The notes under the pieces: model-generated
The model's input: the letters and a program-made list of their open reading frames with translations, nothing else
Database searches by the model: none
Told to the model about the DNA's origin: nothing
Shown: piece by piece, positions 1,793-38,839 of the stretch
Numbering within the stretch: position 1 is the first letter of the stretch
How the letters are laid out: each line of letters starts with the position of its first letter
Assembly (NCBI GenBank): GCA_963667015.2
Contig: CAXXJJ010000004.1
Coordinates: 3,808,001 to 3,872,000 of the forward strand
Reading direction: 5' to 3'
Source: Desulfatiglandales bacterium
GTDB taxonomy: Bacteria; Desulfobacterota; DSM-4660; Desulfatiglandales; HGW-15
Length of the DNA stretch: 64,000 nucleotides
Made by a program: the position numbers and the translations under genes

Positions 1793-3856
1793 TTAAAACG
1801 TCATCTTCAGGTTAACACCAAAGGCAGTACCGGGCATGGGAAACCCATACACCTCCTGATAATCTTTATCTAAAATATTAGTCGCATACACCCTCAGAAC
1901 TATATTTTCCGAATAGGCATGCTGGAAGCCAACATCAACAGTTGTGAAAGAATCAAGATTCATGACGTTGCCTTCGGTCTTCCTTTTACCTACAAACCGG
2001 ATATCGGATGTAATAAGCGTATTGCTGAACAAACTGTACCTTATACCAAGGTTTGCCTTATGCTTAGGCGCAATATTGATAAGAACTGCCTCGGCAAGAA
2101 TCTTTGACTGGTCATAATGGGTTTTTCTGAAGGTATAATTACCAAACAGCGTCAATTTTTCAAACAAATTGGCATTAAATTCAAGCTCTGTACCGTAAAA
2201 AATCATTTCATCCAGATTGTAGCCATAGGTGCTTGCATTGTGAAATGAGTCGCTCGAATTGGCTACAATATAGTTATCTACATCAATATAGTAAAACGCG
2301 AGTTTTGTATCCAGGTTTTTCATGGGACGATGAAACAATCCAAGATCATAATGCCAGCTTGTTTCATTATGAATTTCATCTCCCTTTTCCGTTGAGCCAA
2401 AACTGGCCCATGCTGAACGGTCTCAACAACCCGGGACATGATAATCCTTGTTTACCGACAGATAGAGCTGTGTGTCATCCGTGAACTTGTATGTAAGTGT
2501 AGACTTTGGAAGGAAAAGCCTTGTATAGATCAAATGCCTGTACTTTTCCGTTGTTCCGGGATCTGCATATGCATAGGTCCTTTCTCTGACATGTGTATAT
2601 CTCAATCCGAGAAATGCGGATAATTTTTCGCTGATGTTCCAGGTATCTTCAGCATAAAGGGCCTGCATACGCCATACATCTTCTGTTGACCCTGTTTCCA
2701 TTCTGCGCTGGTCATAACCTGTAAGAACAGAATGACCATCCCAGAAATCCATCTGGTACTGAAGTCTGCCGCCAATCTGTTTTTCCTCTCTGGCAGGGCC
2801 ACCGCTGTATAGCTGTGTCAGGGCACCACCGCTCAGAGTGTAGTAATAACTGTCTTCAGCACCGGATGTCTCATATATCTGAAACTTAAGTTTTGATTTA
2901 TCAAAAGGCTGCTCAAAGGAGAGATCAATGTGCTGCGCATGTTTATCCTTGTAATTGTCTCCACCGGGAAATGATATTGCACGGTATCTGCGGATGGTAT
3001 CCGCATCTTCAGGTACAATAGGATAGCCCGGATACCAGACATTGGAATATGTACTGTCCGGATCATTTACTACGGCATAGCCTACGTTTATCTGGGAATA
3101 TTTTATTCCCAGTGTAAGGTATCCTTCAAATGGAAAAAGATAGGAAAGCCTCCCTGAATAATCATAGCCGTCATAATCGTTATTTAAGAGATATCCGTCA
3201 GATCTTTTATAGCCATAGTTAAAGAAATAGCCGAGGTTCTTTACGCCGCCATCTACTGCTATTCTTGTTGTAAAGGTTCTGAATTTAGAAAGATCATTTA
3301 CGAAAGTTATCTTCGGCTTCAATGTATCCTTTTCTCTTCCCTTTCTGGTAATAATATTGATTATACCGCCCTGGGAATTCTCATACTGGGCCGAAGCAGC
3401 GCCACGGATAACCTCAATTTTTTCAATATCCGCACTGGTCAGGCTTGACCAGTCCACATATGTGTCCGCACCTGCGGTAGGACCGGTTATCGTCCTCCCG
3501 TCAATTGCTATTGTGAACCTGCTGTCGTCAAAACCCCTCATTAATACCATGGTCTGAGGATCTGCACCGGATGAGCCTCTCAAAACATCAATACCGGTGA
3601 GGTGCATCAGAATGTCTTCAACCCGTTCAACCGCCCCGCTCTTATCAAATGCCTCAATATCGATAACAGTTTTTGTAGGGGTAATTTTAACGGCCCCGCC
3701 ATGAAAGGCGGTAACAACTACCTCATCAAGTGTAAATTCATCCTCATTAAGGCAATCTCGATCCGGACATTCATCGTCAAACTGCCCAAAGGCAACCGGG
3801 CATGTCAGGAATAAGAGTGCACATAAGAAGAATATCAGCCTCCTAATACAATACAT
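1793..3856 (-). CDS. TonB-dependent receptor, 687 aa, with in-frame UGA at codon 478 (HVPGC-U-DRS), putative selenoprotein
   Basis: ORFs 2423..3856 and 1793..2338 share a frame and are separated only by TGA 2425-2423; TonB-box-like TLDEVVVTA, plug motif IEKIEVIRG, terminal Phe found only after read-through. Confidence 0.88.
2389..2420 (-). promoter_or_regulatory. SECIS-like hairpin after the TonB receptor UGA
   Basis: TGGGCCA-GTTT-TGGCTCA stem-loop starts 12 nt after UGA; lower stem CCGT/ACGG. Confidence 0.7.
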
Positions 3857-3880
3857 TAATAATAGCTCCTTTCTCTTTTT

Positions 3881-4837
3881 TTAATTTTCCGGCAGAAAAC
3901 TGTAATCCACTATCTTGTCTATAGATACCTTTTCCGGCAGATAGCCTATCTCCCGCATTATTGCCTGCTGGCGGTAGATGTTCTCTTCCGGTTCCCTGCC
4001 GTCACTGTATTCCCTGAGAGCAGACTTCATGGCCACCTCCATTTCCACTCCCGTATATTTTGGAATCCATTTTCTGGCTTTTTTTTCATTGGCCTTAATA
4101 TATTCAAAGGCCTTTATTAGTCCCCTTAAAAAGGCCCTCGCCTTTTCGGGATTTTTCTTCAGGTATTTATCGGTAAAAAACAATCCGCTGAAAACATACC
4201 CCGGTATTGCATCGTTAAATGATGTCAATAGCCTGCTCGCACCATGCACCTCCAGCATGGTCGCTGTAGGGTCTCAGGCAACTATTACATCAACACCCTT
4301 TGACCTTAAGGCTGCTTCGTGTTTCATGGAATCGTCAAGTTTGATTCCCTTGATTGCCCGGATATCATCTTTTTCCAGGCCGGCCTTTTTTAGTGTTTCA
4401 TTAAGAATCATGGCTGTTGTAATGGAACCGGATTCTGCGATCCTTTTCCCCTTCAGGTCCTCTATATTTTGAATATTGCTTTTCTGGTCAACATGAAGAC
4501 CGCATCTTGTGCCCTTGTGTGAGTGCCCCAGCCAGGCAACGACCTTTACAGGGATATTTCTCAAGCCTGCATGAAAGGCCCCTCCCAGGTCCAGGTGCCC
4601 GGCATCGATATCTTCATGTAATGCCGCTGCAATTATGTTGTGTTCACCAACAAGTCTGACCAGTTCAACCTTGAGGCCTTCCTTTTCCCAAAGGCCTTCT
4701 TCAAGGGCCACATACAAAGGGAGGTCATCAATACCGCGGCTGTATGTTATCTTCATGACATCATCAGCGCTCAATAAACTGGAAAAGAAAACGAGTGCTA
4801 TAAATGTAACCAGAATCGATAAATTCTTCTTTTTCAT
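3881..4837 (-). CDS. SsuA/NMT1-like ABC substrate-binding protein, 318 aa, with in-frame UGA at codon 188 (DVIVA-U-DPTAT), putative selenoprotein
   Basis: ORFs 4274..4837 and 3881..4258 share a frame and are separated only by TGA 4276-4274; signal peptide; DLKGKRIA motif; the joined length is typical for the family. Confidence 0.85.
4241..4261 (-). promoter_or_regulatory. SECIS-like hairpin after the SBP UGA
   Basis: Perfect 7-bp stem ACCATGC-TGGAGGT-GCATGGT starts 12 nt after UGA. Confidence 0.72.
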
Positions 4838-4880
4838 ATTTTTTCCTTAAACCTTATACCTTAAACCGCAAACCGTGCTT

Positions 4881-5657
4881 TTACGCCGATGTCTCAGCAA
4901 AAGAGGCATCCGTGTGCCATGAAAGAGCCTTTTTCTGGACCCATCTTGCTATTCTGTCCAACCCGAAACCCATAAGCGAAATTACAATAATACCGGCAAA
5001 CATCCTTTCTGTTGCAAACACCCTCTGGGCATCTATAACAAGAAACCCTATGCCCGAATCTGCAGCAAGCATCTCAACACCGACTATCGCCGTCATGGAC
5101 ATGGCTGTTGAAACTCTCATACCAGTTATAATCATAGGGAGGGCAGAGGGAATCAGAACCATTGTCCATATCTGGCGACCCCTTGCGCCAAGGGATCTTG
5201 CTGCCTGGATAAGGCGTGAATCAACTCCCTTTATCCCTGCGATGGTGTTCAGGACTATCGGGAAGAAACAGGCCTTTACTATAATGGCTGTTTTAGACCC
5301 GTTACCGATCCCGAACCATACAAACATTATGGGTACAAGGGCGAAGGTTGAGATTGGCCTGATGAGTTCAATAAGGGGATCAATGATTGTTTCACACACC
5401 CTTGACCATGCAACAAGCACCCCGATAGTAAGCCCCAGTACCGCCGCTATCAAATAGCCGCAGACAGCCCTGACAATACTTATCCCAATGTGCGGAAATA
5501 TCTCTCCGGATGCGGTCATTTCCCACAGACTCTTCAGCATGGCACTTGGTGCAGGAAAAAAGAACGGGTCGATAAGCCCACTGCGGCCAATAAGTTCAAA
5601 AATAACTAAAAGGCTTAAAGGGGAAATGAATTTTGAATACCGTTTCAGGGTGCTCAT
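4881..5657 (-). CDS. ABC transporter permease, SsuC/TauC-like
   Basis: EAA-like loop LIQAARSLGA, TM helices; ATG at 5657 overlaps the upstream stop (ATGA). Confidence 0.9.
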   Translation of the reverse strand: MSTLKRYSKFISPLSLLVIFELIGRSGLIDPFFFPAPSAMLKSLWEMTASGEIFPHIGISIVRAVCGYLIAAVLGLTIGVLVAWSRVCETIIDPLIELIRPISTFALVPIMFVWFGIGNGSKTAIIVKACFFPIVLNTIAGIKGVDSRLIQAARSLGARGRQIWTMVLIPSALPMIITGMRVSTAMSMTAIVGVEMLAADSGIGFLVIDAQRVFATERMFAGIIVISLMGFGLDRIARWVQKKALSWHTDASFAETSA

Positions 5658-6412
5658 TCCACCATTACCTCGGACCATATAATTCCCCTTATCTCTTTCT
5701 CATATTCCTTGAATTCAGGAGAAAAGAGCGTCTCCCTTATTCTCGGTCTCGGCAGATCAATCCTCATATCCGATATAATCCTGCCGGGTCTTGAACTCAT
5801 AATTACAACCCTGTCGGACAGAAAAACCGCCTCTGAAATGCTGTGAGTTACAAACAGTACAGTACACTTTTCCATCTGCCATATACGTAAAAGCTCTGCC
5901 TGGAGCATCTCCCGTGTCAGAGCGTCCAGTGCACCGAAGGGTTCGTCCATAAGCAGAACATCGGGATTATTTGCAAGTGCCCTGGCAATGGCCACCCTCT
6001 GTTTCATCCCGCCGCTCAGTTCATGGGGATACCGGTTTTCAAACCCCTGCAGGCCCACAAGGCTGATATAGTGATCAATGATTTTTTTACGTTCATGAGC
6101 AGGGACACCATTTACCCTGGGTCCGAATTCAATATTTTTTCCTACTGTCTGCCATGGAAAGAGCAGATATTCCTGAAAAACAATTGCACGTTTAGGATCA
6201 GGGCCGGTCACGGCCCTGCCATCACAATGAACTTCTCCTGATGTAAGGCTTTCGAGCCCTGCTACAATGAGAAGAAAGGTCGACTTTCCGCACCCGCTGG
6301 GGCCTATTATAGAAACAAACTCGTTGTTTCCTACAGAAAGATCCAGGTTTTCCAGTGCGACCACCTTTGCACGCCGGTTAAATTCCTTTGAGACGCCTCT
6401 GGCAACTATCAA
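5654..6412 (-). CDS. ABC transporter ATP-binding protein, SsuB/TauB-like
   Basis: Walker A GPSGCGKST, LSGGMKQR, LLMDEPFGALD. Confidence 0.93.
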   Translation of the reverse strand: MIVARGVSKEFNRRAKVVALENLDLSVGNNEFVSIIGPSGCGKSTFLLIVAGLESLTSGEVHCDGRAVTGPDPKRAIVFQEYLLFPWQTVGKNIEFGPRVNGVPAHERKKIIDHYISLVGLQGFENRYPHELSGGMKQRVAIARALANNPDVLLMDEPFGALDALTREMLQAELLRIWQMEKCTVLFVTHSISEAVFLSDRVVIMSSRPGRIISDMRIDLPRPRIRETLFSPEFKEYEKEIRGIIWSEVMVE

Positions 6413-6419
6413 AACCGGT

Positions 6420-7574
6420 TTATCTCCCTGCCCTTAACTGTTCCATGAAACCTTCGATTCGCAGCCTTAACTGGCCTGCATCAGACTGTGAATAATCCGT
6501 AACAATATGAAGAAAAGGCAGGCCATGTTTTTCCTTAACAAGTTCGCCAACACGATAGGATTCAATATTAAAGGTATGGCATGACTGCCATGTAAGGTCT
6601 ATTACACCGTCAATATTGAACTCACTGATCATGTAGTCTATATCATCAAACCTCTGATTATTAGGTGTCATACATGAACAGGTAACCCTTAAATAACGGT
6701 CTGCAATTGCATCAAGGGGATCCGTTTCCGTATCAATGGGGTCGTTCAGCCTTGTATATCCGCCGCAACCTTCCTGAGCCACAACAACTCCGCCCAGCTC
6801 CTCAACCATCCTTAAAACCTTATCGCATCCAAGGCTGTTTCCAAGCCCTGTCCAGAGTATTCTGGGCCTGCTCCTGTCGCAGGCATATTCCTGATTCACT
6901 AATCGCCGGTTAAGTTCATTCAATACATCCGATAATCTGGAGGTATATGTGGAACGGTCTATGGAATAACCCATTTTGGTGGTAAGAGACACCAGGTCCA
7001 GCCCCATGATTGGCGGAGGAGAAGATTTTCTGCACTGGTGGATTGCCTTTAGAAGAGCCCTTTCCCTGTTTCCCTGTTCAATTGCCTTTGAAAGCGCATC
7101 ATTCGTTATTTTCGTATCAAGCTGATCCTCAAGGAAGCATTTCATTTTTTCCACTTCACGGCGCCAGTGAGCCTGTGCTTCCTGATCATCAGGCTTTTGA
7201 GGAAGATCCATCACATGCATGGGTTTGTACCTTGATAAAAGCTCATACATCTTTTTTCTTCCGTCACATGTGGTTTCGCTTACGATACAGTCTGCAAGGG
7301 GGAAAATAGGACAGGAATTATTGACAGCCCTTCCGTATGTAGCTTTCACCATTGGGCATTGATCCGCGGGGAGAACCTGTTCGGCCGCCTCAATTGGCCC
7401 CTCGGTCGTCCCGCACAGACCGACAGTAACAGCGCCTGCGGCCCAGGCAATTTCTCTGGGAAAATAGGAACAGAGAGAACCTACAACTTTTTTGCCCTCA
7501 TCCTTTGCCATTTCAAGCTGCTGAGCGAAATCCGTCTTAACTTCATCAATTTTTTCTTTTACAGTCAGGTCCAT
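6420..7574 (-). CDS. Double-cubane-cluster protein (DCCP)-like reductase, 2-hydroxyacyl-CoA dehydratase family
   Basis: LCSYFP, GLCG, QCPMVK, CPIF, ETTCDGRKK, EGCGG, CSCMTPN, WQSCHTF, TDYSQSD. Confidence 0.85.
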   Translation of the reverse strand: MDLTVKEKIDEVKTDFAQQLEMAKDEGKKVVGSLCSYFPREIAWAAGAVTVGLCGTTEGPIEAAEQVLPADQCPMVKATYGRAVNNSCPIFPLADCIVSETTCDGRKKMYELLSRYKPMHVMDLPQKPDDQEAQAHWRREVEKMKCFLEDQLDTKITNDALSKAIEQGNRERALLKAIHQCRKSSPPPIMGLDLVSLTTKMGYSIDRSTYTSRLSDVLNELNRRLVNQEYACDRSRPRILWTGLGNSLGCDKVLRMVEELGGVVVAQEGCGGYTRLNDPIDTETDPLDAIADRYLRVTCSCMTPNNQRFDDIDYMISEFNIDGVIDLTWQSCHTFNIESYRVGELVKEKHGLPFLHIVTDYSQSDAGQLRLRIEGFMEQLRAGR

Positions 7575-7658
7575 GAACAATCCTCGCTTCCACATTCTTT
7601 TTCAGAGACAACTGGTATCTATATTTTTGAAGTGCACACTATTCAGGAAAAGTCAATG

Positions 7659-7710
7659 TGTCAAACTGGATTTTCCTATATATGACAAGCTTATGGTCGG
7701 GCAAACCGAT
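7659..7710 (-). promoter_or_regulatory. Shared operator/promoter, site 1 (DCCP-ABC-TonB operon)
   Basis: ATCGGTTTGCCCGAC-N16-ATAGGAAAATCCAGT-TTGACA. Confidence 0.8.
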
Positions 7711-7840: not shown

Positions 7841-7892
7841 AAAGGATTTTCCTATATATAATACAAAATTCATCGCTTATACCAGTTTGACA
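7841..7892 (+). promoter_or_regulatory. Shared operator/promoter, site 2 (porin-yedE operon)
   Basis: AAAGGATTTTCCTAT-N16-ATCGCTTATACCAGT-TTGACA. Confidence 0.8.
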
Positions 7893-14738: not shown

Positions 14739-14755
14739 AGCGGCTCCTTTTTTCG

Positions 14756-19117: not shown

Positions 19118-19129
19118 TTCTGTTTTTTA

Positions 19130-19970: not shown

Positions 19971-20022
19971 ATCGTTTTATCCAATCCATCCCGAATTATT
20001 TATCGGAATATACAACTTGACA
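19971..20022 (+). promoter_or_regulatory. Shared operator/promoter, site 3 (Mo-hydroxylase operon)
   Basis: ATCGTTTTATCCAAT-N16-ATCGGAATATACAAC-TTGACA. Confidence 0.72.
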
Positions 20023-20088
20023 AATTTGTCGCCCATTTATAAGTAGAATATGTATCATTGAAATATTCAATTTTTTACCGGAGTTTTT

Positions 20089-20148
20089 ATGAAGATATTT
20101 TTCGGCTTTACCTGAGGGATTAACAGGTTATCTACCCGGGTCTGGTAG
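20089..20148 (+). CDS. Leader peptide 1, MKIFFGFT-U-GINRLSTRVW (UGA at 20113-20115)
   Basis: GGAG 5 nt before ATG; paralogue at 35760; hairpin CTA-C-CCGG-GT-CTGG-TAG at 20132-20148. Confidence 0.72.
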
Positions 20149-20851: not shown

Positions 20852-20861
20852 GAGACCGATT

Positions 20862-21911: not shown

Positions 21912-21943
21912 CCTATTACCCATTATACTTCAGGAGGAAAAAA

Positions 21944-22663
21944 ATGGCTGATGAAAAAACCAACGTTAACCGCAGAAGCTTTCTTAAGAATGCGGGCGTC
22001 ATCATCGGCGGCAGCGCTATCGGAGCCGCGGGTATGACTTTAAGACCTGAAATGGCACAGGCCGCAGACGCTGTTAAATCAGTGCCAAAAACCGTTACAC
22101 AGTTCCGTTGCCCGGTGTGTAATAAAAACTTCAGCAGCTTTGCTGAATTGAAGCATCATTTTCAGACCGATCACCCGGAAAATGTTATGCCCACCACCAC
22201 AAAGCTCAATATCAACGGAGAGGATTGCGAGGTCCTGATAGAGCCCCACTGGACTCTTCAGCGTACACTCCAGTTCAAGCTGGGCCTGAGCGGCGCCAAA
22301 CACATGTGCGGCCGGGGTGCATGCGGGTCATGTACTGTAATCATGGATGGCAGGGCAATCCTGTCATGTACTACTCTGGCAGTTGAGTGTGAAGGAAAAG
22401 CAATCCAGACCGTAGAAGGTATTGCGGCTGATCCCAAATGGAGACCCCTCATTGATTCTTACTGTAAGTGGGATGCCATGCAGTGCGGTTACTGTACACC
22501 CGGGATGCTGGTTTCCGCGAAAAACCTTCTTGATAAAACACCCAATCCTACAGCGGAAGACTGTAAACAGGCCCTCGCTGGCAACCTGTGCAGCTGCGGC
22601 ACATATCACCGACACCCCACAGCTATTTTGGAAGCTGCCCAGACAATAAAAGGAGGTGCATAA
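21944..22663 (+). CDS. Molybdenum hydroxylase small (2Fe-2S) subunit with Tat signal and C2H2 finger
   Basis: NRRSFLK; CPVC..HFQTDH; CGRGACGSC, QCGYCTPG, GNLCSC. Confidence 0.9.
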   Translation: MADEKTNVNRRSFLKNAGVIIGGSAIGAAGMTLRPEMAQAADAVKSVPKTVTQFRCPVCNKNFSSFAELKHHFQTDHPENVMPTTTKLNINGEDCEVLIEPHWTLQRTLQFKLGLSGAKHMCGRGACGSCTVIMDGRAILSCTTLAVECEGKAIQTVEGIAADPKWRPLIDSYCKWDAMQCGYCTPGMLVSAKNLLDKTPNPTAEDCKQALAGNLCSCGTYHRHPTAILEAAQTIKGGA

Positions 22664-22664
22664 C

Positions 22665-25022: not shown

Positions 25023-25105
25023 TAAAAGCAAGGTTCAAGGTTTAAGGCTTAAGGTTCAGGGTAAAGGCCTTAAATCTAAACCAAAAAGCTAACAAGGAGA
25101 AAAAA

Positions 25106-26082
25106 ATGAAGCCATTTAATCATACAAATGCAACATCAATTGCAGAAATCAAAACAGCCCTTGCCGACGGTAAAACTACGCTTATTGCAGGCGGGACTGA
25201 TCTATTAGGGACACTCAAGGATAATATCCTTCGCGACTACCCTTCTACAGTAATTAATATTAAAACCGTTCCCGGGCTTGATTATATCAAGGAAGAAAAG
25301 GGAATACTCAAAATAGGAGCAACAACACGTCTGGCAGATATTGCGGCTGATCCCACTGTGCAGAAGAAATACACTGCACTGGCCCAGGCAGCGTCACGTG
25401 TAGCTTCACCCCATATCCGGGACATGGGTACCATAGCTGGAAATATTGCACAGCTTCACAGGTGCTGGTATTTTCGCAAACCGGAAAACCGCTTTGACTG
25501 TAAACGAAAGGGAGGATCAACATGCTTTGCCATGAGCGGTGACAACCGTTACCACTCAATCTTTGGTGCAGAAGGCGGGTGCCTTGCGGTTCATCCCAGT
25601 GATACAGCTCCCGCACTTATAGCACTCAACGCAAAGATAGTTACGGACAGCAGGACAATTGAGGCGGATAATTTTTTTGAGGTAAAACAGCCTGGGAATA
25701 CGGTTCTTGCGAAGGATGAAATAATCACTGAAATTCAGATCCCTGAGCCTCCAAAGGGCTGTAAAAGTGCATTTATCAAATTTGCCTCGCAGGGAAGAGC
25801 GTCCGTAAATCCATTGACTTCCCCATTGTAAACTGTGCGGTAATGGTCGGTGGCAAAGAACCAAGGATTTGTCTGAACGCCGTTGCACCCAGGCCTTATC
25901 GTGCAACAAAGGCAGAAGAAGCCATCGCAGGGAAGAGCGTTAAAAAGCTCAATGAAAAGCTGGCTGATGCAGCAGGGGAGGCGGCTGTTTCCGAGGTAAA
26001 ATCATTTCCCAGTGCAGCCCAGTTTAAAAAACAGATAGCTAAAACCATTGTAAAACGGGCAATTCTTATGGCGACAGCCTGA
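25106..26082 (+). pseudogene. FAD-binding subunit of the Mo hydroxylase, frameshifted near 25787-25802
   Basis: IAGGTDL, IRDMGTIAGN, HPSDTAPAL; the expected KFA-x-RKSIDFPIVNCAV continues in another frame. Confidence 0.8.
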
Positions 26083-26159
26083 TAAGGATGATGCAATATT
26101 TAGACTAGGGAAGAACAGATCGTTCTTCCCTGTTGTTTTATATGAATAAGGAGGAAACG

Positions 26160-26477
26160 ATGTTAACAGTAACAGACAAGGCAAACGAAAAGATCACAGA
26201 TTTTCTTAAGGCCCAGAAAGACCCGTCATGCATAAGGTTTTTCCTCTCAGAAGGCGGCTGCTCAGGGCCTTCTATTGGAATGGCTCTTGATGAGCCGTCA
26301 GAAAATGATGAGGTTATAAAAGACAACGGGGTAACCTACTTAATTGACAAAATGCTGCTGGAAAAGGCAAAACCGATAAGTGTTGACTTTATTGAATCTG
26401 AGACCGGTTCGGGTTTTTCAATCTCCTCCAGTTTACCAAAGGGAACAGGGTGCAGCTCTTGCTCAAGCTGCTCCTGA
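26160..26477 (+). CDS. IscA/HesB-like protein, Cys form (GGCSGPSIGMALDE)
   Basis: RBS AGGAGG; family motif; C-terminal CSSCSSC. Confidence 0.85.
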   Translation: MLTVTDKANEKITDFLKAQKDPSCIRFFLSEGGCSGPSIGMALDEPSENDEVIKDNGVTYLIDKMLLEKAKPISVDFIESETGSGFSISSSLPKGTGCSSCSSCS

Positions 26478-26530
26478 TCAGATAAAATACAGGGATTTTC
26501 AATTCAACTTAATACAGAAGGAGAAAAGAG

Positions 26531-27403
26531 ATGAAATATGCCAAATTAATGATTTTGTCGGGTGTATTGCTGTCGATTCTGGCCGCAGGAACTGTTTACG
26601 CAGCGGCCCAGGATCAGTGGGAGGTATTAATACCCAGGGCAATCGACGGGGTGAAGGTGAGAATGGCTGCATTCCACAACGAAAACTTTGGCGTCTGGGG
26701 CGGAGCCGGGGACGAAGGCGCCCAGCACTATACCCTTGACGGAGGCAAGACCTGGACGGCGGCAAAGACCGGAGGCTGCATGTTCTCCGTGGATATCGTG
26801 GATACTGACACAATATGGCAATCCTGTCTGAGCGGTACAAGTCTGACTGTAGACGGCGGGAAAAACTGGAAGGTCATTGCAAAAGATGTCGGCGGTCTGG
26901 CCAGCATCCTTGCCTTTGCGGATGCAAAGACAGGATGGGTAGGTTCCGCAAATAAGTTTAAAGTGACCAGGGACGGCGGGGCAACGTGGAATGAACTGAC
27001 CCTGCCCGAAGGAGTCAACGCTGTTGCTGCAATTTCACTCCGCACTCCGACCGACGGGTACCTGATAGGAAAGGATGGTGTCCTGTACATTACAAATGAC
27101 TGCGGCAAGTCCTGGAAGTCCGGTTCACTGGGCCTTGAAAACCCTGTTATTTCCGGGTTCGACAACGATTGGGTCGAGACTCCGCAGGCTGCCGTGCGTT
27201 TTACCGACGCCAAAAATGGCCTGGTCGTTCTGGGACTTTCAGGCAATGAGAATATGATTGCCCTGCGAACAGAAGACGGCGGGAAATCCTGGAAAAAAGA
27301 AAACGTACCCGCTAAACCGGGGAAACCCTTTATCTCCCGTGACGGAAAATTTTTGACGATAAGCAAATGGCAGGTAGGGCTTACACTCCTCAAAGCCAAC
27401 TAG
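26531..27403 (+). CDS. Exported YCF48/BNR-repeat beta-propeller protein
   Basis: Signal peptide; repeated T-x-DGG-x-T/SW Asp-boxes. Confidence 0.8.
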   Translation: MKYAKLMILSGVLLSILAAGTVYAAAQDQWEVLIPRAIDGVKVRMAAFHNENFGVWGGAGDEGAQHYTLDGGKTWTAAKTGGCMFSVDIVDTDTIWQSCLSGTSLTVDGGKNWKVIAKDVGGLASILAFADAKTGWVGSANKFKVTRDGGATWNELTLPEGVNAVAAISLRTPTDGYLIGKDGVLYITNDCGKSWKSGSLGLENPVISGFDNDWVETPQAAVRFTDAKNGLVVLGLSGNENMIALRTEDGGKSWKKENVPAKPGKPFISRDGKFLTISKWQVGLTLLKAN

Positions 27404-27414
27404 GTGTTCCTTTT

Positions 27415-27924
27415 ATGATCACAGGTATTATGCAATGGCTTTTCCCGTGTTTTCTTTCACTTAAGAAGCATAATACCTGTATTCATATCCCGTGCGTTCT
27501 GCACTGGCTGTTTCGATTCATTCTGTCCGGCATCTTTTTATACAGCGGCTATGTCAAATGGAAAAGTCCGTTGCGGTTCGAGGCGGTGCTTTATGCATAT
27601 GACCTGTTTCCGGACGTATATATTCCTGCCATAGCCCTGTATTTCCCCTGGGTTGAAATAATTCTTGGCCTGTTACTCCTGATTGGATTCAGACGAAAGA
27701 TCCGATATCTGGCCGGAGCCTCCACCATGCTGCTGCTTTTTTTTATAACCATTATAATCATCACCTATTTCCGGGGGATTGAAGTAGATTGCGGATGCCT
27801 GGGCTTCGACGATCCGATCTCTCCCTGGACAATCGCCCGCGATACCCTGATGCTCATTCCTGCCATTTATCTGCTGTTCGCAGACCCTCTGCTTCGCAGA
27901 AGCCTTAAGAGTCCAACCCCTTAA
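27415..27924 (+). CDS. MauE/DoxX family membrane protein (start uncertain)
   Basis: RFILSGIFLYSG, PWVEIILG, DCGCLG. Confidence 0.78.
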   Translation: MITGIMQWLFPCFLSLKKHNTCIHIPCVLHWLFRFILSGIFLYSGYVKWKSPLRFEAVLYAYDLFPDVYIPAIALYFPWVEIILGLLLLIGFRRKIRYLAGASTMLLLFFITIIIITYFRGIEVDCGCLGFDDPISPWTIARDTLMLIPAIYLLFADPLLRRSLKSPTP

Positions 27925-27935: not shown

Positions 27936-27987
27936 ACCGGCTTTTCCGGTACTACATAGTCTTTTTATCGATATTTCCAGTTTGACA
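27936..27987 (+). promoter_or_regulatory. Shared operator/promoter, site 4 (UshA-like cytochrome)
   Basis: ACCGGCTTTTCCGGT-N16-ATCGATATTTCCAGT-TTGACA. Confidence 0.8.
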
Positions 27988-28246: not shown

Positions 28247-29605
28247 ATGAAGAAAATATCAGTTTATATCCTTATTCCACTGCTTGCGGCAGTCATCCTT
28301 TCAACCTTATCTCATACAGAAGATTCAAATGCGGCTGATAACCCGGAGATCACCATTGTCTACAGCAGTAATGTTCTGGGTTATTATCAGCCATGCGGCT
28401 GCAGTGAAGGCGAACAGCTTGGCGGATTGTACAAAAGGTCCACATACCTTAACAATTTTAGAAAAGAACATGGCGAGGTTATCATAGTCGATTCCGGTGA
28501 TCTGCTAAATGAGAATGAAGATCTTTCCGACAAAGTACTTGAATCGGCAAAACTTAAAGCTAAGCTCATAGCTCAGATATACAATACAACAGGAATCGAT
28601 GCAGTGGCTGTCGGTGAACTGGACCTGGTTTTAGGTATTGATTTTCTTAAAGAGCTGCAGGGAAAATATAATTTCCCTTTCATTTCCGCCAACCTGGTTG
28701 ATGAGAAGAACATCCCCTTTTTTAAGCCCTACATTATTAAAAAAATAAACGGAAAGAATGTTGGTATATTCGGGCTTATAGGAAGCAGTTCCGAGATGGG
28801 TTCGAAAATAGAAAAGCTTACAGGCGGTAAAGCAAAGGTTCTGGATACTTTAAAGACCGCAGAAACCATTATTAATGAACTGTCAGGGAAAGTCGATTAC
28901 ATGGTTGCAGTTGCTCATCAGCGAACCAACAGAAACTGGGTAATGGCAAAAAAGGTACCGGGAATAGATTTGATTGTCGTAGGTCATGATAAGCTCAAAA
29001 CAGAGAAACCAAGTAAGGCCGGTAATTCCCTTATTGTACAGGCAGGAGAAAAGGCCCAGCACCTTGGAGTGCTGGAGGTTACAATAAATGATTCTCAAAC
29101 TGAGCATAACATGCTGGTCCCCCTTGGCAACAAAATAGAAGATGATCAGAAGATCAAGGATATGATAGGTGAGTATGAACACAGTGTCGCATCTATGTAT
29201 AATAACCAGGTTCAGGAAAATGCCGCCACTAAAAATGTTGTATCAAGAGTTGCTGTGTGTGAAGCCTGCCATGAAGATCAGGTAAAGGCATGGGACGCCA
29301 CGGACCATGCCCATGCATACGATACGCTGGTCCAAAAATCAAAGCAGCTTGACCCTGACTGCCTGAACTGTCACACAACCCGTTTCGAGCAGCCCGAAGG
29401 CTTTACTATGCAACTTAAGCAGATGGAACTGGCAAATGTTCAGTGCGAAAATTGTCATGGGTTTGCAAAGGAACACCTGAATGACGGAACGCCGATTCCT
29501 GTGGCAAAGCCTGGTATGGATCTATGCCTTAAATGCCACAGCCCCTATCGGTCACCTGATTTTGAAAAGAATGCTGCTGAGATTTTTGAGAAAATAAAAC
29601 ACTAG
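28247..29605 (+). CDS. UshA-like metallophosphoesterase domain fused to a tetraheme cytochrome c; Cys form (PCGCS)
   Basis: QPCGCS..LGG, VDSGDL, ISANL, IVVGH; CEACH, CLNCH, CENCH, CLKCH. Confidence 0.85.
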   Translation: MKKISVYILIPLLAAVILSTLSHTEDSNAADNPEITIVYSSNVLGYYQPCGCSEGEQLGGLYKRSTYLNNFRKEHGEVIIVDSGDLLNENEDLSDKVLESAKLKAKLIAQIYNTTGIDAVAVGELDLVLGIDFLKELQGKYNFPFISANLVDEKNIPFFKPYIIKKINGKNVGIFGLIGSSSEMGSKIEKLTGGKAKVLDTLKTAETIINELSGKVDYMVAVAHQRTNRNWVMAKKVPGIDLIVVGHDKLKTEKPSKAGNSLIVQAGEKAQHLGVLEVTINDSQTEHNMLVPLGNKIEDDQKIKDMIGEYEHSVASMYNNQVQENAATKNVVSRVAVCEACHEDQVKAWDATDHAHAYDTLVQKSKQLDPDCLNCHTTRFEQPEGFTMQLKQMELANVQCENCHGFAKEHLNDGTPIPVAKPGMDLCLKCHSPYRSPDFEKNAAEIFEKIKH

Positions 29606-29668: not shown

Positions 29669-30808
29669 CTATAGCATTTCGATATAGGCCTCTATTCTAA
29701 CCCGGAGCTGTCCGGTATCGCTCTCGGAATAATCCGTTTCCAGGTGCAGCGACGGAACGCCCAGGAGCTCCTGGACCAGCTCATCCACCATAAAGGCTTC
29801 AATGTTGTAGGTGTGGCAGGCCTGCCAGGTGAGATCGATTACGCCGTCAACAGAGAAATCCCTGATTATTTCGGAAAGGAGATCAAACCTGCCATTATTG
29901 GGACTCATAACCGAGCAGGGGGTCCTAAGATACTGTTCGGCCAGGGCATCCATGGGGTCTTTATCCTCTGCGACCTGGAAGGCCTGCTTGTAACCGGAAC
30001 AGCTCTCAAAGGCAACCACGTCTGCCCCGATCTGCTCAACTATCCTGATAACCTTTTCACTCCCGATTCCGACCGGAACACCGGTAAGGAGAATTCTTTT
30101 TTTATTGTTGCCGCTTTCCACCGGGGAGGCTGTTTCATGGTGCTTTATAACTTCCTGCATCAGATCGATACCTTTTTCCTTGTTCGCCAGAAACCCAACC
30201 TTTAAAGAGGACCTCGAGCAGTTGCGTAAACCTGGAAGCGGCGCGGGTATTGGCTTTATTGATAGGTCCATCAGGGCCTTTCTTGTCATGCGTTCCCTGT
30301 TCATCAGCCCTATGGCATCCTTTAGTTTATCCTGAGTGTAATCGTTACACCGGTCAGTTGTTCCACAATGGCCTTGAAATGATGCAGCTCATTTTTCCAT
30401 GCTGCAAGCGCCAGTGTCATCATCCTGCAGTGAAGGCAATTGCATCACGTGGGTTGTCTTGGTTCGGTTCAACAGTTCGAACATCTTCTTTTTACCGTCG
30501 CAGGTAGTGTCACCTATGATAATATCGGAAAAGGCGAAAAAAGGGCAGGTATCAGTAATTGCAAATCCATAGCTCGATTTGATCAGCGGGCATAGGTTGC
30601 GCGGAAGCACATCTTCGGCTGCGGTTATGGGGTTGTTGCTGGTGCCGCACAGGGGCAATGGAATAGCGCCGGCGGCAACGGCTATCTCCATGGGAGAATA
30701 GAGGCAGTAGTATCCTACAGCGGCTCTGCCGTCCTTTTTCATCTGTTCAATATCCTCAGGATTCTGATCCATGGCCTGCTGGAGTCTTGTCATCAGTTTT
30801 TCAGTCAT
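29669..30808 (-). pseudogene. Second DCCP-like reductase, frameshifted around 30300-30400
   Basis: N-part YCLYSP, LCPLIKSSYG, TTCDGKKK; C-part ESCSG, WQACHTY, ETDYSESD in a separate ORF. Confidence 0.82.
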
Positions 30809-30901: not shown

Positions 30902-30953
30902 TGTCAAACAAGAGTTTCCGATCTATTTAAGTTATCTCATAGACACACCCTAT
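30902..30953 (-). promoter_or_regulatory. Shared operator/promoter, site 5 (second DCCP)
   Basis: ATAGGGTGTGTCTAT-N16-ATCGGAAACTCTTGT-TTGACA. Confidence 0.8.
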
Positions 30954-33744: not shown

Positions 33745-34185
33745 TTAGGCGGCAATTTTCTGTTTCCATCCATATACCGGCCCCAGTGTTCTGATTATTT
33801 CAGTAAATTTTTTGCATGTTTCAGCAAACTGAGGTCCCATGGAAGCAGAGTTATAATAGATATTGACCCTTTCAGGCTCTATTCCTATTTCTTTGAATAA
33901 TGTCTTTGCATATTTAATAAGGGTTGTGGCCTTTTCATTCCCTGACACATAATGACAGTCACCTATCAGGCAGCCTGATAGGAATACTCCGTCCGCGCCA
34001 TTCTCTATAGCCTGCAGCAGGTTGATAAGGGCGATTCTTCCGGTGCATGGAATTTTTATTATTTTAACATTGGCCGGATATCCCAGCCTCAGTGATCCTG
34101 CCAGATCTGCAGCCGCATATGAGCACCACTGGCAGCAGAAGGCTATTATATTCGGCTCAAAATCGTTAATATTTTTCCCGTTCAA
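33745..34185 (-). CDS. mvhD: MvhD-like hydrogenase iron-sulfur subunit, Cys form
   Basis: IIAFCCQWCSYAAADLAG, PCTGRI, GADGV..GCLIGDCHY; probable TTG start at 34185. Confidence 0.88.
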   Translation of the reverse strand: MNGKNINDFEPNIIAFCCQWCSYAAADLAGSLRLGYPANVKIIKIPCTGRIALINLLQAIENGADGVFLSGCLIGDCHYVSGNEKATTLIKYAKTLFKEIGIEPERVNIYYNSASMGPQFAETCKKFTEIIRTLGPVYGWKQKIAA

Positions 34186-34208
34186 CTTATAAATCCTTTG
34201 TATTAAAA

Positions 34209-35492
34209 TTAAAGCCCAAACTCTGCAAGATCCGGCCCCAGGTATGTACGCTCGTTTTCTCCGAGCATTCCCATTGCAAGGCATATTATTGTCCATAGAT
34301 GAACAACATGATAGTCTCCACCAAAATGCTCTCCAATATCATGTATCTGGGCGTGGCAGTTATGGCATGGTACTGCCACATAATTTGCCCCTGTCGCAAT
34401 TATCTGATCAAATTTTATTTTTCCATAGGACTGTCTCTCATCCCTGAAACCGGCCTGAAGTGAGCCTCCTCCACCACCGCAGCAGAAGTTGTTCGACCTG
34501 TTGGGAGTAATGTCCACGAAATTTTCTTCGCCCACAACGGACTTTACTACAAACCGAAGGTCCTCGGCCATTGGATCTCCTATGGACTTCCTTACAATAT
34601 TACATGGGTCCTGGACCGTAAACTTGATCTTGAGGTCTTTGTTCCACTCGGAGTTGACTTTGAGTTTCCCCTCCCTGATCCATTTTGCATAAAGCTGCAC
34701 AACGCTTATGAATTCAAAATTGTGAGGGATATTGAATTTTTTAAGTGCTGCCCATACAGCATAAAATGAGTGCCCGCATTCGGTATTTACAAAATATTTG
34801 CAGCCCAGTTTATCTATATGCTCTGCCTGTGCCCGGACTATATACTCCCAGCTTTCATCATCGGCCAGGAACATGCAGTAGTTTTCTCCGGCCCACATAT
34901 CGGAATAGTATGTCCAGTCTGCCCCTGCTTTATGAAGTATCTTCCACAAAGGAAGGAGTTCATCAGGTTCGGTAACAGGCTCCCTGGAATTCTGGTTAAA
35001 GCAGTACATGGCCCCTTCCCTGTCTATTGAGGCCTGAAAATCCTCAAATCCTTCCTGCTCACGAAGTTCTTCGGCCAGGTCTTCAATTACAAATTTATAA
35101 TCATCAAGAGGAACACCCATTGCACCTCCCCTGGACTTTACATGATGATCACAGGAGCCGAGTATTCCCTTTGGTCTTTCCTCCCTGGGCCACTGGGACC
35201 GGAGATAATAGATGATATTTGGAATATCGATATCCATGGGGCATGCATGCTGGCACCGTTTGCACATTGTACATACCCATAACCATGGATTGCGCTCAAC
35301 CTCTTCATCCAGACCAAAAGCAATCATTCTGAGCAGTTTTCTCGGGTCCATGTCCATCTGGCCTGTAGCCGGACAACCCCCTGAACATGTACCGCAGGTC
35401 AGGCAGAGATTGAGATTTGCTCCATTAAGCAAATGATTGATTTCTTTTCGGATATTTCCTTTTGCTTTTGTTAAATCTATAGCTTCGCTCAT
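34209..35492 (-). CDS. HdrC/HdrD-like Fe-S oxidoreductase (CCG domain)
   Basis: CLTCGTCSGGCP, CTMCKRCQHACP, ECGH, QDPC, CCGGGGG, PCHNC. Confidence 0.85.
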   Translation of the reverse strand: MSEAIDLTKAKGNIRKEINHLLNGANLNLCLTCGTCSGGCPATGQMDMDPRKLLRMIAFGLDEEVERNPWLWVCTMCKRCQHACPMDIDIPNIIYYLRSQWPREERPKGILGSCDHHVKSRGGAMGVPLDDYKFVIEDLAEELREQEGFEDFQASIDREGAMYCFNQNSREPVTEPDELLPLWKILHKAGADWTYYSDMWAGENYCMFLADDESWEYIVRAQAEHIDKLGCKYFVNTECGHSFYAVWAALKKFNIPHNFEFISVVQLYAKWIREGKLKVNSEWNKDLKIKFTVQDPCNIVRKSIGDPMAEDLRFVVKSVVGEENFVDITPNRSNNFCCGGGGGSLQAGFRDERQSYGKIKFDQIIATGANYVAVPCHNCHAQIHDIGEHFGGDYHVVHLWTIICLAMGMLGENERTYLGPDLAEFGL

Positions 35493-35822: not shown

Positions 35823-35874
35823 AGTCAAACAGGAAAACCCGATATAGAAAACATTTCATTAAACATATTCCGAT
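35823..35874 (-). promoter_or_regulatory. Shared operator/promoter, site 6 (hdrD-like/mvhD operon)
   Basis: ATCGGAATATGTTTA-N16-ATCGGGTTTTCCTGT-TTGACT. Confidence 0.77.
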
Positions 35875-36526: not shown

Positions 36527-36578
36527 ATAGGTTATGCCCATTATTTGATCAATCTATATCGATTTTTCCTGTTTGACC
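36527..36578 (+). promoter_or_regulatory. Shared operator/promoter, site 7 (third DCCP and its activase)
   Basis: ATAGGTTATGCCCAT-N16-ATCGATTTTTCCTGT-TTGACC. Confidence 0.8.
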
Positions 36579-36642: not shown

Positions 36643-37920
36643 ATGAGTGAAGACTACAGATCCATGTGGACAGATTTAGGGCTTGATCTTGAAGCACATG
36701 ACGCACTGCTGGCTGTCCTTGGACAGGCATATAAGGATATTTACCTCTCCCAGGAAGACCGGCCCGAGGAGATGAGTTATTTTGATTTCGTTATAAGCAA
36801 TGTACACAGTCTCCGGATAAAAGAACTGCTTGATGAAAAAAAGGAAGGACGTAAAATTATCGGCTCCTACTGTGTGTTTGTTCCCGAAGAGATCGTACTT
36901 GCTGCAAACGCCACACTTATCGGACTCTGCTCGGGCGCTGACTTTGCCATGGAGGAGGTAGAAAAATATCTGCCCAGGAACACATGCGCACTTATCAAAT
37001 CCTCTTTCGGTTTCAAGCTTGGGAAGGTATGTCCTTACCTGGAAAGCGCAGACATGATAGTTGGTGAAAATACATGTGACGGCAAGAAAAAGGCCTATGA
37101 AACCCTGGGAGGCCTTGTCAACAACCTCTATGTAATGGATATTCCACAGGTAAAATCGGTTCAGGGCAGAGAGCTGCTTAAACAGGAATATGCCCGTTTT
37201 AAAGAGAGTGTGGAGAACCTTACCGGCAGAAAAATAACAATAGAATCCCTGAAAGAGGCAATAAAAACAGTAAATGCAAAGCGTGCGGCAATGCACAGGC
37301 TGTCATCACTGAGAAAATATGATCCGGCCCCCATATCCGGACTGGATGCACTGCTTGCAAACCAGGTATTTTTTTATGATAACCCCGGTCGATTTACTGC
37401 ATCTGTGAACAGGATATGCGACGAACTTGAAAAACGTATTGAGGACAAAAAGGGTGTGTTTCCTGAAAAGACTCCCAGGATTTTAATTTCCGGATGCCCC
37501 CAGGCAGTGCCCAACTGGAAACTTCCCTATCTTATTGAAACATCAGGGGCCGTCATCGTTGGCGAGGAATCATGTGTAGGAGAAAGAGGAGTAAGAAACC
37601 TTACAGATGACTCAGGACAAACAATAGATGAAATGATGGAAGCGATTGTAGACAGGTACTTCAAGGTTGACTGCGCTATCTTTACCCCCAACCAGGAAAG
37701 ATGCGACCATGTGAAAGAGATGTTCAACGAATATAACGCAGATGGCGTTATCCATTACGGGCTTCAGTTCTGCCAGCCCTATATCATGGAATCCATCCCT
37801 GTAGAAAAGGCCCTTGAAGACAGTGAGATTCCGACACTCCGAATAGAAACGGATTATAACATGGAAGATGCAGGTCAGCTGAAGACAAGGATCGAGGCAT
37901 TTATTGAGCAATTGAAGTAG
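36643..37920 (+). CDS. Double-cubane-cluster-containing anaerobic reductase, long form
   Basis: YCVFVPEE, GLCSG, RNTCALIKS, CPY, ENTCDGKKK, EESCVG, DCAIFTPN, LQFCQPY. Confidence 0.88.
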   Translation: MSEDYRSMWTDLGLDLEAHDALLAVLGQAYKDIYLSQEDRPEEMSYFDFVISNVHSLRIKELLDEKKEGRKIIGSYCVFVPEEIVLAANATLIGLCSGADFAMEEVEKYLPRNTCALIKSSFGFKLGKVCPYLESADMIVGENTCDGKKKAYETLGGLVNNLYVMDIPQVKSVQGRELLKQEYARFKESVENLTGRKITIESLKEAIKTVNAKRAAMHRLSSLRKYDPAPISGLDALLANQVFFYDNPGRFTASVNRICDELEKRIEDKKGVFPEKTPRILISGCPQAVPNWKLPYLIETSGAVIVGEESCVGERGVRNLTDDSGQTIDEMMEAIVDRYFKVDCAIFTPNQERCDHVKEMFNEYNADGVIHYGLQFCQPYIMESIPVEKALEDSEIPTLRIETDYNMEDAGQLKTRIEAFIEQLK

Positions 37921-37942
37921 CTTAAAAAAGCAAAAACTAATA

Positions 37943-38066
37943 TCTCGCCCGCTTCGCTAGAGTCCGCAGAGATCGCAGAGAAAAGCAAAAATATTTTTTT
38001 ATTTTTTCTTTAAAACATAAATCGTTTTTCTCTGTGTCCTCTGTGAGCGCAGCGAATGGGCGAGAG
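37943..38066. repeat. MITE-like palindromic element, copy 1
   Basis: TCTCGCCC...GGGCGAGA ends with internal CGCAGAG/CTCTGTG arms; related copy at 60802-60925. Confidence 0.65.
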
Positions 38067-38086
38067 AAAATTTTATAAGGATTACA

Positions 38087-38839
38087 ATGAATTTTGCAGG
38101 AATAGATATAGGCTCACGCACAATTGAGCTGGTTGTAATAAATGAGGCAGGGAAGATAATACAAAGCCTTCAGGCAGATACCGGATTTGACCCAGCCATG
38201 ACAGCAAAAGAACTTTTAGTTCAGGCTCCGCATGACCATATCATGGCAACAGGTTATGGCCGAAATCTTTTTGAAATCAACTTTGATGCCCCTACTGTAA
38301 CAGAAATAAAGGCCCATGCCACAGGTGCAAGGGCCTTTTTTCCTGACATCCGCACGGTTATCGATATCGGCGGACAGGACAGCAAGGCAATATCTTTATT
38401 TGAAAACGGCAGGGTAAAAAAATTTGAAATGAATGACAGGTGTGCTGCGGGCACCGGCAAGTTTCTTGAAATCATGGCAAAGACACTTGGTTTTGATATT
38501 GATGAGTTTGGGGATGAAGCACTCAAGGCTGAAGAGAATGTAAGTATATCCAGCATGTGCACTGTATTTGCCGAATCCGAAGTAACATCACTTATAGCAA
38601 AGGGACAAAACAGAAGAAACATAGCAAAAGGGCTCCATGCAAGTGTAGTTAACAGGGCCTTCGGAATGATAAACCGCATTTCATCGGAGGGTGATATCGT
38701 GTTTACCGGCGGTGTTGCCAAAAATCCCTGCATGAGAGAACTGCTTTCAAAAAAACTGGGCAGAAAGGTAGTTGTGCCTGATGACCCACAGCTTGTAGGA
38801 GCCTATGGCGCAGCATTAATTGTAATGAATTCCGATTAA
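38087..38839 (+). CDS. ATP-dependent activase (DCCP-reductase type)
   Basis: GIDIGS, TGYGR, DIGGQDSK, NDRCAAGTGKFLE, CTVFAESE. Confidence 0.9.
   Translation: MNFAGIDIGSRTIELVVINEAGKIIQSLQADTGFDPAMTAKELLVQAPHDHIMATGYGRNLFEINFDAPTVTEIKAHATGARAFFPDIRTVIDIGGQDSKAISLFENGRVKKFEMNDRCAAGTGKFLEIMAKTLGFDIDEFGDEALKAEENVSISSMCTVFAESEVTSLIAKGQNRRNIAKGLHASVVNRAFGMINRISSEGDIVFTGGVAKNPCMRELLSKKLGRKVVVPDDPQLVGAYGAALIVMNSD

Follow-up and report, generated by a model that had tools for sequence, protein, structure and literature searches.

The stretch of DNA analysed here, referred to below as the window, comprises 64,000 nucleotides (nt) of contig 4 of a Desulfatiglandales bacterium (positions 3808001-3872000), within a genome of 7.19 Mb and approximately 42% G+C. 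It holds an island of about 35 kb, in which the genes between window positions 1793 and 38839 form seven transcription units. Their seven promoters share one operator layout, and two of the promoters are followed by a short translated leader whose UGA codon is embedded in an RNA structure resembling a bacterial selenocysteine insertion sequence (SECIS). It is probable (roughly 60%) that the island represents the core of a two-layer regulon by which this bacterium responds to selenium limitation, for which we infer the DNA-binding regulator, the action of SelB, the termination step and the sign of the response. As a selenium regulon, the system appears well supported by comparative evidence. 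A preliminary description of the same DNA had proposed such a programme, which presupposes that the organism can insert selenocysteine (Sec), and the genome does encode tRNA-Sec, SelA, SelB and SelD, the last with one TGA. No Rfam family reached its gathering score in the 64-kb window. The sequencing runs found to contain the region were DNA contigs from three studies, with no RNA run among them. The genes of the island are the following.

1793..3856, minus strand: TonB-dependent receptor of the CU-motif selenoprotein type (..PGCU..), one in-frame TGA; NF049946, 1099.8 bits against a cut-off of 700
3881..4837, minus strand: SsuA-family periplasmic binding protein, one in-frame TGA (..VIVAUDP..), hairpin 17 nt after the UGA (z-score -2.46)
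4881..6412, minus strand: ATP-binding cassette (ABC) permease and ATPase, SaoP/SaoA-like, both under the family cut-off
6420..7595, minus strand: double-cubane reductase DCCP1; NF040772, 472 bits
8003..13070, plus strand: operon of Opr-type porin, YedE (TIGR04112, 493.7 bits), TusA, DUF3343, Carb_kinase-like protein, DUF1858 and BcrAD-type activase
18311..19840, minus strand: YqeB (TIGR03309, 261.8 bits, cut-off 220) and an OS_HP2-like DUF1573 protein, divergent from promoter 3
20321..27924, plus strand: leader-1 operon genes, namely two unknowns, molybdenum hydroxylase subunits (2Fe-2S, MoCo, FAD), HesB (NF038090), BNR protein and MauE; HesB and BNR protein are cysteine (Cys) forms
28247..29605, plus strand: Cys form (PCGC) of the UshA-like (seleno)protein family (NF041198), fused to c-type cytochrome motifs
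29669..30808, minus strand: double-cubane reductase DCCP2, with an in-frame TGA of uncertain meaning
33745..35492, minus strand: leader-2 operon genes, HdrD/HmcF-like and MvhD, both Cys forms by comparison with paralogues
36643..38839, plus strand: double-cubane reductase DCCP3 and activase, by family match

This inventory agrees with most of what had been claimed for the targets: yedE, tusA and DUF3343 are all present, the three DCCP-like reductases were found, and the MvhD, HesB-like and UshA-like genes are indeed in their Cys form. The claim of two Sec-bearing importers was upheld for the receptor, which belongs to a curated CU-motif selenoprotein family, while the status of the binding protein as a selenoprotein is only plausible.

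The seven sigma-70-type promoters lie between 7659 and 36578 and have the common fixed layout ATCG-N11-TTGAC. When they are aligned on the -35 hexamer, ATCG (in one promoter the variant ATAG) stands exactly 11 nt 5' of TTGAC in all seven, the first T of which falls at 7664(-), 7887(+), 20017(+), 27982(+), 30907(-), 35828(-) and 36573(+). The operator-promoters, with their scores in a 23-nt core matrix, are listed below.

7659..7681, minus strand: operator-promoter 1, ATAG-N11-TTGACA, 30.7 bits; drives DCCP1, ABC ATPase, permease, binding protein (with U) and TonB receptor (with U)
7870..7892, plus strand: operator-promoter 2, 27.7 bits; drives porin, yedE, tusA, DUF3343, the Carb_kinase-like gene, DUF1858 and the DCCP activase
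20000..20022, plus strand: operator-promoter 3, 25.8 bits; 5' of leader 1
27965..27987, plus strand: operator-promoter 4, 33.2 bits; drives the UshA-like (Cys form)-cytochrome gene
30902..30924, minus strand: operator-promoter 5, 28.1 bits; drives DCCP2
35823..35845, minus strand: operator-promoter 6, 31.0 bits; 5' of leader 2
36556..36578, plus strand: operator-promoter 7, 31.0 bits; drives DCCP3 and activase 2

With a 32-nt matrix derived from the seven sites, their own scores are 30.2-37.8 bits, and the next sites in the genome reach 26.9, 24.7 and 23.1 bits, with all others at or below 19.0 (14.4 Mb, both strands). The core matrix gives 55 genome matches of at least 12 bits, and here too the top seven are the sites of the window. 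The earlier claim of a single operator layout at seven promoters therefore holds, with the spacing fixed in 7/7 and the seven best scores genome-wide. In leave-one-out scoring, the sites yielded, in order from 7664 to 36573, 20.7, 18.7, 11.4, 22.0, 11.9, 26.7 and 19.1 bits. Because of the values of 11.4 and 11.9, the sites at 20017 and 30907 must be regarded as weak by themselves, leaning partly on their context.

The ATCG box recurs in weaker form about 31 nt further 5', and each promoter carries up to three direct copies of a ATCGGAAnTTCC-type box. Relative to the proximal box, which abuts the -35 hexamer, the boxes start at -31, 0 and +22 bp, so that the third is located between -35 and -10. 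The same three-box layout emerged from the consensus of 67 aligned promoters, TATCGGAATTTCCAGT-TTGACA-aATcGgaa, with AT.GG..TT.CC in the distal position and TA...t in the -10 region. LysR-type promoters of the BenM/CbnR kind, such as benA, combine a distal recognition site with activation sites near -35 on one helix face, and the three boxes follow this layout. A minus-strand promoter-like site (19995-20023) overlaps operator 3, and this box may control both directions, including the yqeB/OS_HP2-like side. Two more strong operator matches were found outside the window, on contig 4 near 438243 and 3776402. One of them is located 5' of a thiolase-like gene; the other is followed by approximately 2 kb with no clear ORF and then by ferredoxin and aldehyde-oxidoreductase-like genes.

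The most likely ligand of the boxes, judged from gene neighbourhoods, is the single LysR_Se-family regulator of the genome. Only two LysR-type (LysR_substrate) genes are present in this organism. One of them, on contig 4 at 2766077-2766985 and hence outside the window, reaches 275.3 bits with the LysR_Se model NF040786 (cut-off 250), and the other 184.3 bits. Downstream of the LysR_Se gene come a moeB-like gene and, at a distance of 1.2 kb, an eighth operator (23.1-26.9 bits, the upper value with the 32-nt matrix), which precedes yedF (TIGR03527, 223.5 bits; the YedF protein ends in ..LUG). Moreover, a half-box stands about 40 nt before the LysR_Se start codon. The regulator is encoded above the cut-off in 52/61 genomes of the family, and a core-matrix match was found within about 1.5 kb of it in 20/29 foreign LysR_Se loci (104 kb in total), against about 0.8 expected from the rate of 55 matches per 7.19 Mb in the genome studied here.

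Behind promoters 3 and 6 lie the two leader elements.

20077..20193, plus strand: leader 1 RNA element; ORF 20089-20148, UGA 20113-20115, second stop UAG 20146-20148; covariance model 88.2 bits
35656..35772, minus strand: leader 2 RNA element; ORF 35760-35677, UGA 35736-35734; covariance model 61.2 bits, z-score -3.06

The two eight-codon peptides read MKIFFGFT before the TGA at 20089-20115(+) and MKKVFGFT before the TGA at 35760-35734(-). FGFT-TGA occurs five times in the genome in any frame context, and only the two window copies stand eight codons after an ATG. Thus, the paralogous MKxxFGFT-UGA leaders with a SECIS-like hairpin that the preliminary description had recognised are confirmed, both of them behind shared promoters, and the genome-wide scan places the top seven operators and both leader copies in the window. 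A bacterial SECIS is composed of an in-frame UGA and, at a short fixed distance, a stem-loop with a G in its apical loop, and this is the organisation seen in the leaders. As expected of a leader peptide, the ORF is short and combines a ribosome-binding site of its own with a diagnostic codon; a Shine-Dalgarno (SD)-like motif lies 5' of 69/84 leaders from this and other genomes, and the ATG stands eight codons from the UGA in all 85 copies, as fixed by the search pattern. The base after UGA is G in 40 copies, C in 35, A in 8 and T in 1. The total length is 19 codons in 50/83 leaders, with a range of 11-36 codons.

The fold was derived from an alignment of 31 copies, composed of the two window leaders and 29 of the first 30 loci, one duplicate having been dropped. 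Stem P1 is formed by codons 4-7 and a strand about 50 nt after the UGA, and stem P1b by CCUG, which takes in the U and G of the UGA, and CAGG. P2 is a hairpin of 5-6 bp that starts 17-20 nt after the UGA and whose 3' arm usually holds the second stop, UAG. Its placement and GG-containing loop are the same as in the hairpins after the UGA of the genome's own selenoprotein genes. The fold pairs 92.5% of its cells, whereas sliding the partners by 1-3 columns leaves only 32-55% paired. Changes on both sides are seen in nine pairs, in 31 cells compared with 6-15 in the slid versions. Shuffles reached the observed values in 0/500 cases for four of the five measures and in 6/500 for further pair types.

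A search with the covariance model of the own genome and of selA, selB, selD and yedF loci returned no copy beyond the two window leaders. A match of 19.3 bits (E 0.05), antisense inside the receptor gene, was treated as noise. The model alone found one foreign copy (L133:2541-2656), located before a porin gene and encoding M-F-Y-L-F-A-F-T-UGA with Ala for Gly, which retains the ATG, the eight codons and the UGA. Since this copy reads FAFT, the FGFT pattern undercounts the leader family. The covariance model detects no leader in the 260-nt 5' region behind operator 4 (27988-28246), and the UshA-like Cys gene carries the leader MHHFFGFT-UGA in four other genomes of this genus.

Across relatives, the leader was sought with the pattern ATG-N9-TTYGGNTTYACNTGA and, as a control, with the reversed pattern. 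It was found in 67/209 genomes of the order (one match for the control) and in 26/401 genomes of an even sample of the phylum (control, 0). The loci examined and the window together contain 85 distinct copies. The 23-nt core matrix, made from the seven window sites only, has a match of at least 12 bits within 160 nt 5' of 66/77 leaders in other genomes and of 0/77 control stretches, and most foreign leaders have 57-84 nt between the -35 hexamer and their ATG. A first downstream gene could be assigned for 62/85 leaders, using an ORF filter of at most one U and a start within 800 nt; the remaining 23 run into a contig end or have no ORF passing the filter. The genes assigned are as follows.

yedE: 16 loci
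selB: 10 loci
double-cubane reductase: 7 loci
UshA-like, all PCGC (Cys) forms: 4 loci
HdrD/HmcF-like: 4 loci
unknown 349-aa family: 4 loci
HoxE/NuoE-like: 3 loci
TsoB-like: 2 loci
selD (with U): 1 locus
yedF, HdrA, MvhD, OS_HP2, porin, TonB receptor and ABC ATPase: 1 locus each
LptA (probably a chance pattern match): 1 locus
no family match: 3 loci

In 15/26 loci examined by ARAGORN, the leader is separated from selB or yedE by a tRNA-SeC gene. Since a tRNA gene cannot be regulated via its translation, the output of the leader must act on transcription or on the fate of the RNA. Across the order, selenium genes repeatedly have both operator and leader at their 5' side, and the predicted two-layer design is conserved. 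The tRNA-SeC gene starts about 85-100 nt after the leader in loci L004 (e.g. L004:1663-1754), L007, L011, L026, L028, L061, L085 and others. The yedE loci L095, L064, L044 and L060 hold tRNA-Sec-like remnants not called by ARAGORN.

The island also holds Cys versions of proteins that the genome encodes a second time with Sec. Comparison of the island proteins with the genome by tblastn identified five Cys genes behind operators and nine paralogues elsewhere with a TGA in place of the relevant Cys codon, among them the Sec paralogues of mvhD, hesB and the ushA-like gene that the starvation programme had led one to expect.

MvhD, motif CCQWCSY: two paralogues with TGA at that Cys
HdrD-like, motif NTECGH: four paralogues with TGA at that Cys (60-64% identity)
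HesB, motif SEGGCSG: one paralogue with TGA at that Cys (80% identity)
UshA-like, motif PCGC: one paralogue with TGA at that Cys
BNR protein, motif GGC: one paralogue with TGA at that Cys

No operator able to drive the nine Sec paralogues or selA, selB and selD was found within 5 kb of them; the only match in that range, of 12.3 bits near the BNR paralogue, is oriented away from the gene. With the Cys paralogue under the operator and the Sec copy outside, the gene arrangement is of the vhc/frc type of Methanococcus, for which Cys copies are described as standing under the selenium regulator and Sec copies outside it (PMC5322559).

The RNA downstream of the leaders offers the SECIS-like structure an alternative partner (segment 3).

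20199-20222, plus strand: segment 3 of leader 1, then U-rich tract 20223-20230; duplex -19.1 kcal/mol
35606-35583, minus strand: segment 3 of leader 2, then U-rich tract 35582-35575; duplex -16.2 kcal/mol

In the full-length minimum-energy fold of both window leaders, P1 is lost and the 3' half of the SECIS-like structure pairs with the downstream segment. A duplex of -15 kcal/mol or lower that ends within 3 nt of a U-rich 8-mer occurs in 21/68 loci, against 11 with reversed and 8.9 with shuffled sequences; at -20 kcal/mol the numbers are 7 against 2 and 1.2, respectively. When the P1 3' strand was tested for simple duplexes with the 130 nt that follow, the signal was weak overall, with a mean z-score of -0.64 and values below -2 in 9/69 loci. 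In three leader subfamilies the 3' strand is matched by a downstream partner, CCGAAAAA by UUUUUCAG, GUCGAAAA by UUUUCGAC and CCGGAAAA by UUUUCCUG. The support for the alternative helix is real but partial. The 80 nt after P1 are poor in G and rich in C (mean G 13.0, C 21.9; n=84), a composition that would suit Rho. It is also conceivable that this pyrimidine tract masks the SD sequence of the leader itself.

Two layers of control can be proposed from these observations. At the level of initiation, LysR_Se would act at the boxes of the seven promoters. After initiation, the leader UGA, situated in the lower stem of the SECIS-like structure, would allow the ribosome on the leader to sample the Sec insertion capacity of the cell, that is, the SelB.GTP.Sec-tRNA complex. 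Recoding of UGA to Sec involves a long pause at this codon, and when Sec-tRNA is missing, release factor 2 (RF2) releases all ribosomes (PMC4513850). The 5' strand of P1 corresponds to leader codons 4-7 and would hence be covered by the translating ribosome, while the 3' half of the SECIS-like structure may pair instead with the segment 50-100 nt further on, before the U-rich tract. In the presence of Sec, the ribosome would dwell at the UGA on the 5' strand of P1, the alternative, terminator-like helix would form and the operon would be attenuated. When Sec-tRNA is lacking, RF2 would free the ribosome, P1 would re-form and transcription would continue. The predicted output comprises selenium scavenging by the porin, TonB receptor, ABC importer, YedE/TusA/DUF3343 and probably the double-cubane reductases, together with Cys versions of enzymes otherwise made as selenoproteins. 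The proposed sign, expression at selenium shortage, follows from the nature of the genes, which are importers, Sec machinery and Cys substitutes, and from the consideration that selC and selB could not be activated by the very products they encode.

In the trp, his and thr leaders and in tnaC, the position of a ribosome at a diagnostic codon of a translated leader selects between mutually exclusive RNA folds. The leaders of the island resemble these attenuators in being short, translated and upstream of the regulated genes, and tnaC also takes its decision at a UGA. They differ in that the predicted signal is stop-codon recoding, carried out by SelB/Sec-tRNA at a SECIS, and not the supply of a standard aminoacyl-tRNA or free amino acid, and in that the sensing codon lies inside the structure that would recruit the factor. 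Moreover, no canonical 3:4 terminator is seen after the window leaders, and the leader-regulated genes of relatives include the tRNA itself. The E. coli selAB 5' untranslated region likewise carries a SECIS-type hairpin that reports the state of the SelB/Sec-tRNA complex to selenium machinery genes; this element is untranslated, located 3 nt from the selA SD sequence and represses translation initiation (Thanbichler and Bock 2002, as summarised in PMC13449736), whereas the element described here comes after the UGA of a translated mini-ORF and is separated by 150-550 nt from the next start codon or, in relatives, stands before tRNA genes. For fdhF-Sec of Treponema primitia, the decoding of UGA/SECIS by the ribosome is described as setting the extent of transcription, but that UGA belongs to the structural gene under regulation, which is controlled by polarity (PMC3892789); the island leader is a dedicated, eight-codon, detached element.

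The regulator side has its closest counterpart in HrsM, an archaeal LysR_Se of Methanococcus that is tied to the Cys isoforms of selenoenzymes under selenium scarcity (PMC5322559, PMC11097638). The island shares with HrsM the link between a LysR_Se-family regulator and such isoforms, but it is bacterial, its box sequence and layout differ, and importers, double-cubane reductases and a ribosome-based layer are added. YedE, YedF, DUF3343 and LysR_Se were predicted from gene context to function in selenium uptake or regulation (Lin et al. 2015; PMC5322559). Neither 'binding site' nor 'promoter' occurs in the main text of this study, which gives no description of the operator, of the leader or of regulon membership. 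Full-text literature searches, with subscription journals and supplements outside their scope, returned no published account of a UGA/SECIS leader or of a bacterial LysR_Se operator.

Several observations weigh against the two-layer shortage response. The selA, selB, selC and selD genes of the own genome carry neither leader nor operator. The conservation of the leader peptide is partly built into the search, in which FGFT was fixed. The alternative helix encloses a loop of 30-100 nt, exceeds the controls only about two-fold and is absent or weak in about two thirds of the loci, and a scan for canonical hairpin-plus-U terminators after both window leaders gave none, in contrast to a classical attenuator. 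The remaining points bear on the sign. The same elements could work in the opposite direction, with Sec insertion at the leader turning the operon on and thereby confining selenium-consuming functions to times of selenium supply. The molybdenum hydroxylase of the leader-1 operon lies beside yqeB, a marker of a selenium-dependent cofactor, and would fit induction by selenium sufficiency; the regulon includes proteins that themselves require Sec (the receptor, the binding protein and YedF), which is awkward for a starvation response. A ribosome that reaches the second stop would also mask some of the 3' strand, which could keep the alternative helix from forming, and in Treponema primitia translation of UGA/SECIS raises fdhF-Sec transcription (PMC3892789). 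This reversed sign is nevertheless rather unlikely. In relatives the leader precedes the tRNA-Sec gene, selB and selD, and a system that needed its own products could not start. Moreover, the leader-2 operon and part of the leader-1 operon consist of Cys replacements of selenoproteins, and the second stop is only 10 codons past the UGA in 50/83 leaders, which would bring little relief of polarity.

The nature of the elements themselves can also be questioned. The boxes are direct repeats without a clear version of the classical T-N11-A dyad; TATCGGAATTTCCAGT is only an imperfect palindrome (ATCGGAA-T-TTCCAGT), of which the ATCGG half is much better conserved. They may therefore be bound by a regulator other than LysR_Se, or the regulon may respond to sulfur or redox instead of selenium, given that YedE/TusA relatives move thiosulfate (TsuA models match weakly), that the ABC system is SsuA/Tau-like and that a hybrid kinase and a receiver-GGDEF protein are encoded within the island. 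Such an assignment is quite unlikely, as the operator is found beside LysR_Se far above expectation, as the organism has two LysR genes only, as the targets include selenium-specific equivalogs (TIGR04112, TIGR03527, TIGR03309, NF049946) in addition to the Cys/Sec pairs, and as the promoter drives selC, selB and selD in relatives. As to the RNA, the similarity of P2 to local SECIS elements, the E. coli precedent (PMC13449736) and the fact that pairing in P1 and P1b explains much of the 'peptide' conservation would all agree with a translation-independent operator for SelB, in which the short ORF is incidental. This is very unlikely in view of the SD-like motif before most leaders (the ATG itself being set by the pattern) and of the retention of ATG, eight codons and UGA in the copy found by the model only; at its distance from the next start, or before a tRNA gene, the element cannot occlude a ribosome-binding site in the manner of its E. 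coli counterpart. The combination of SD, ATG, UGA and SECIS-like hairpin, with the fixed length of 19 codons in 50/83 leaders, might instead denote functional small selenopeptides of about 19 residues. This appears highly improbable: the residues after U are not conserved except for those resulting from the P2 stem, the length varies widely, and the ORF invariably precedes selenium-related operons and follows the same promoter.

For the sensing of selenium and the resulting choice between Sec enzymes and their Cys substitutes, the archaeal HrsM system is, to our knowledge, the only worked example. For the predicted regulator LysR_Se, the island offers a candidate box sequence and a defined regulon of importers, carriers, reductases and Cys back-ups. 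If the shortage response proposed here is correct, the success of the ribosome in recoding UGA would be a regulatory signal, including for the tRNA-Sec gene in relatives. It would also place the double-cubane reductases, the CU-motif TonB receptors and several unnamed proteins in the context of selenium scavenging. A wider proposal, held tentatively and at slightly less than even odds, is that the leader is a new class of ribosome-based sensor of the outcome of UGA recoding (Sec or stop), which sets the transcription of the tRNA-Sec gene, selB, selD, importers and Cys replacements across a phylum, atop the first defined DNA target of LysR_Se, and that the ATP-dependent double-cubane reductases are the missing enzymes that reduce scavenged selenium compounds to selenide for SelD.

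Some features of the island deserve mention in their own right. The TGA of DCCP2 has the context ..SMEKUAASF.., its paralogues have no Cys at this position and no SECIS-like hairpin was found after the TGA; the gene may be split or decaying, or read through in an unusual manner. The two proteins directly after leader 1 (20321-21911, plus strand), of 176 and 349 aa, have no Pfam or NCBIfam match, and the ESM Atlas returned only unnamed clusters for the larger one. The 349-aa family stands behind a leader in three other genomes of the genus, and a paralogue of its island member, 48% identical, adjoins the gene for a further hydroxylase FAD subunit. Mid-island, at 13095-17950 on the minus strand, lie the hybrid histidine kinase (HAMP-GAF-HisKA plus three receiver domains) and the receiver-GGDEF protein, neither of which has an operator. 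At 31943-32721 on the minus strand, only C-terminal fragments of MTHFR-like and URO-D-like genes are present, resembling gene debris between two regulon units. The FAD subunit of the hydroxylase (25106-26082, plus strand) is split by a stop other than TGA into an ORF of 241 aa and a CO_deh_flav_C ORF of 79 aa, and near-identical FAD subunits (83-85% identity) are encoded elsewhere in the genome.

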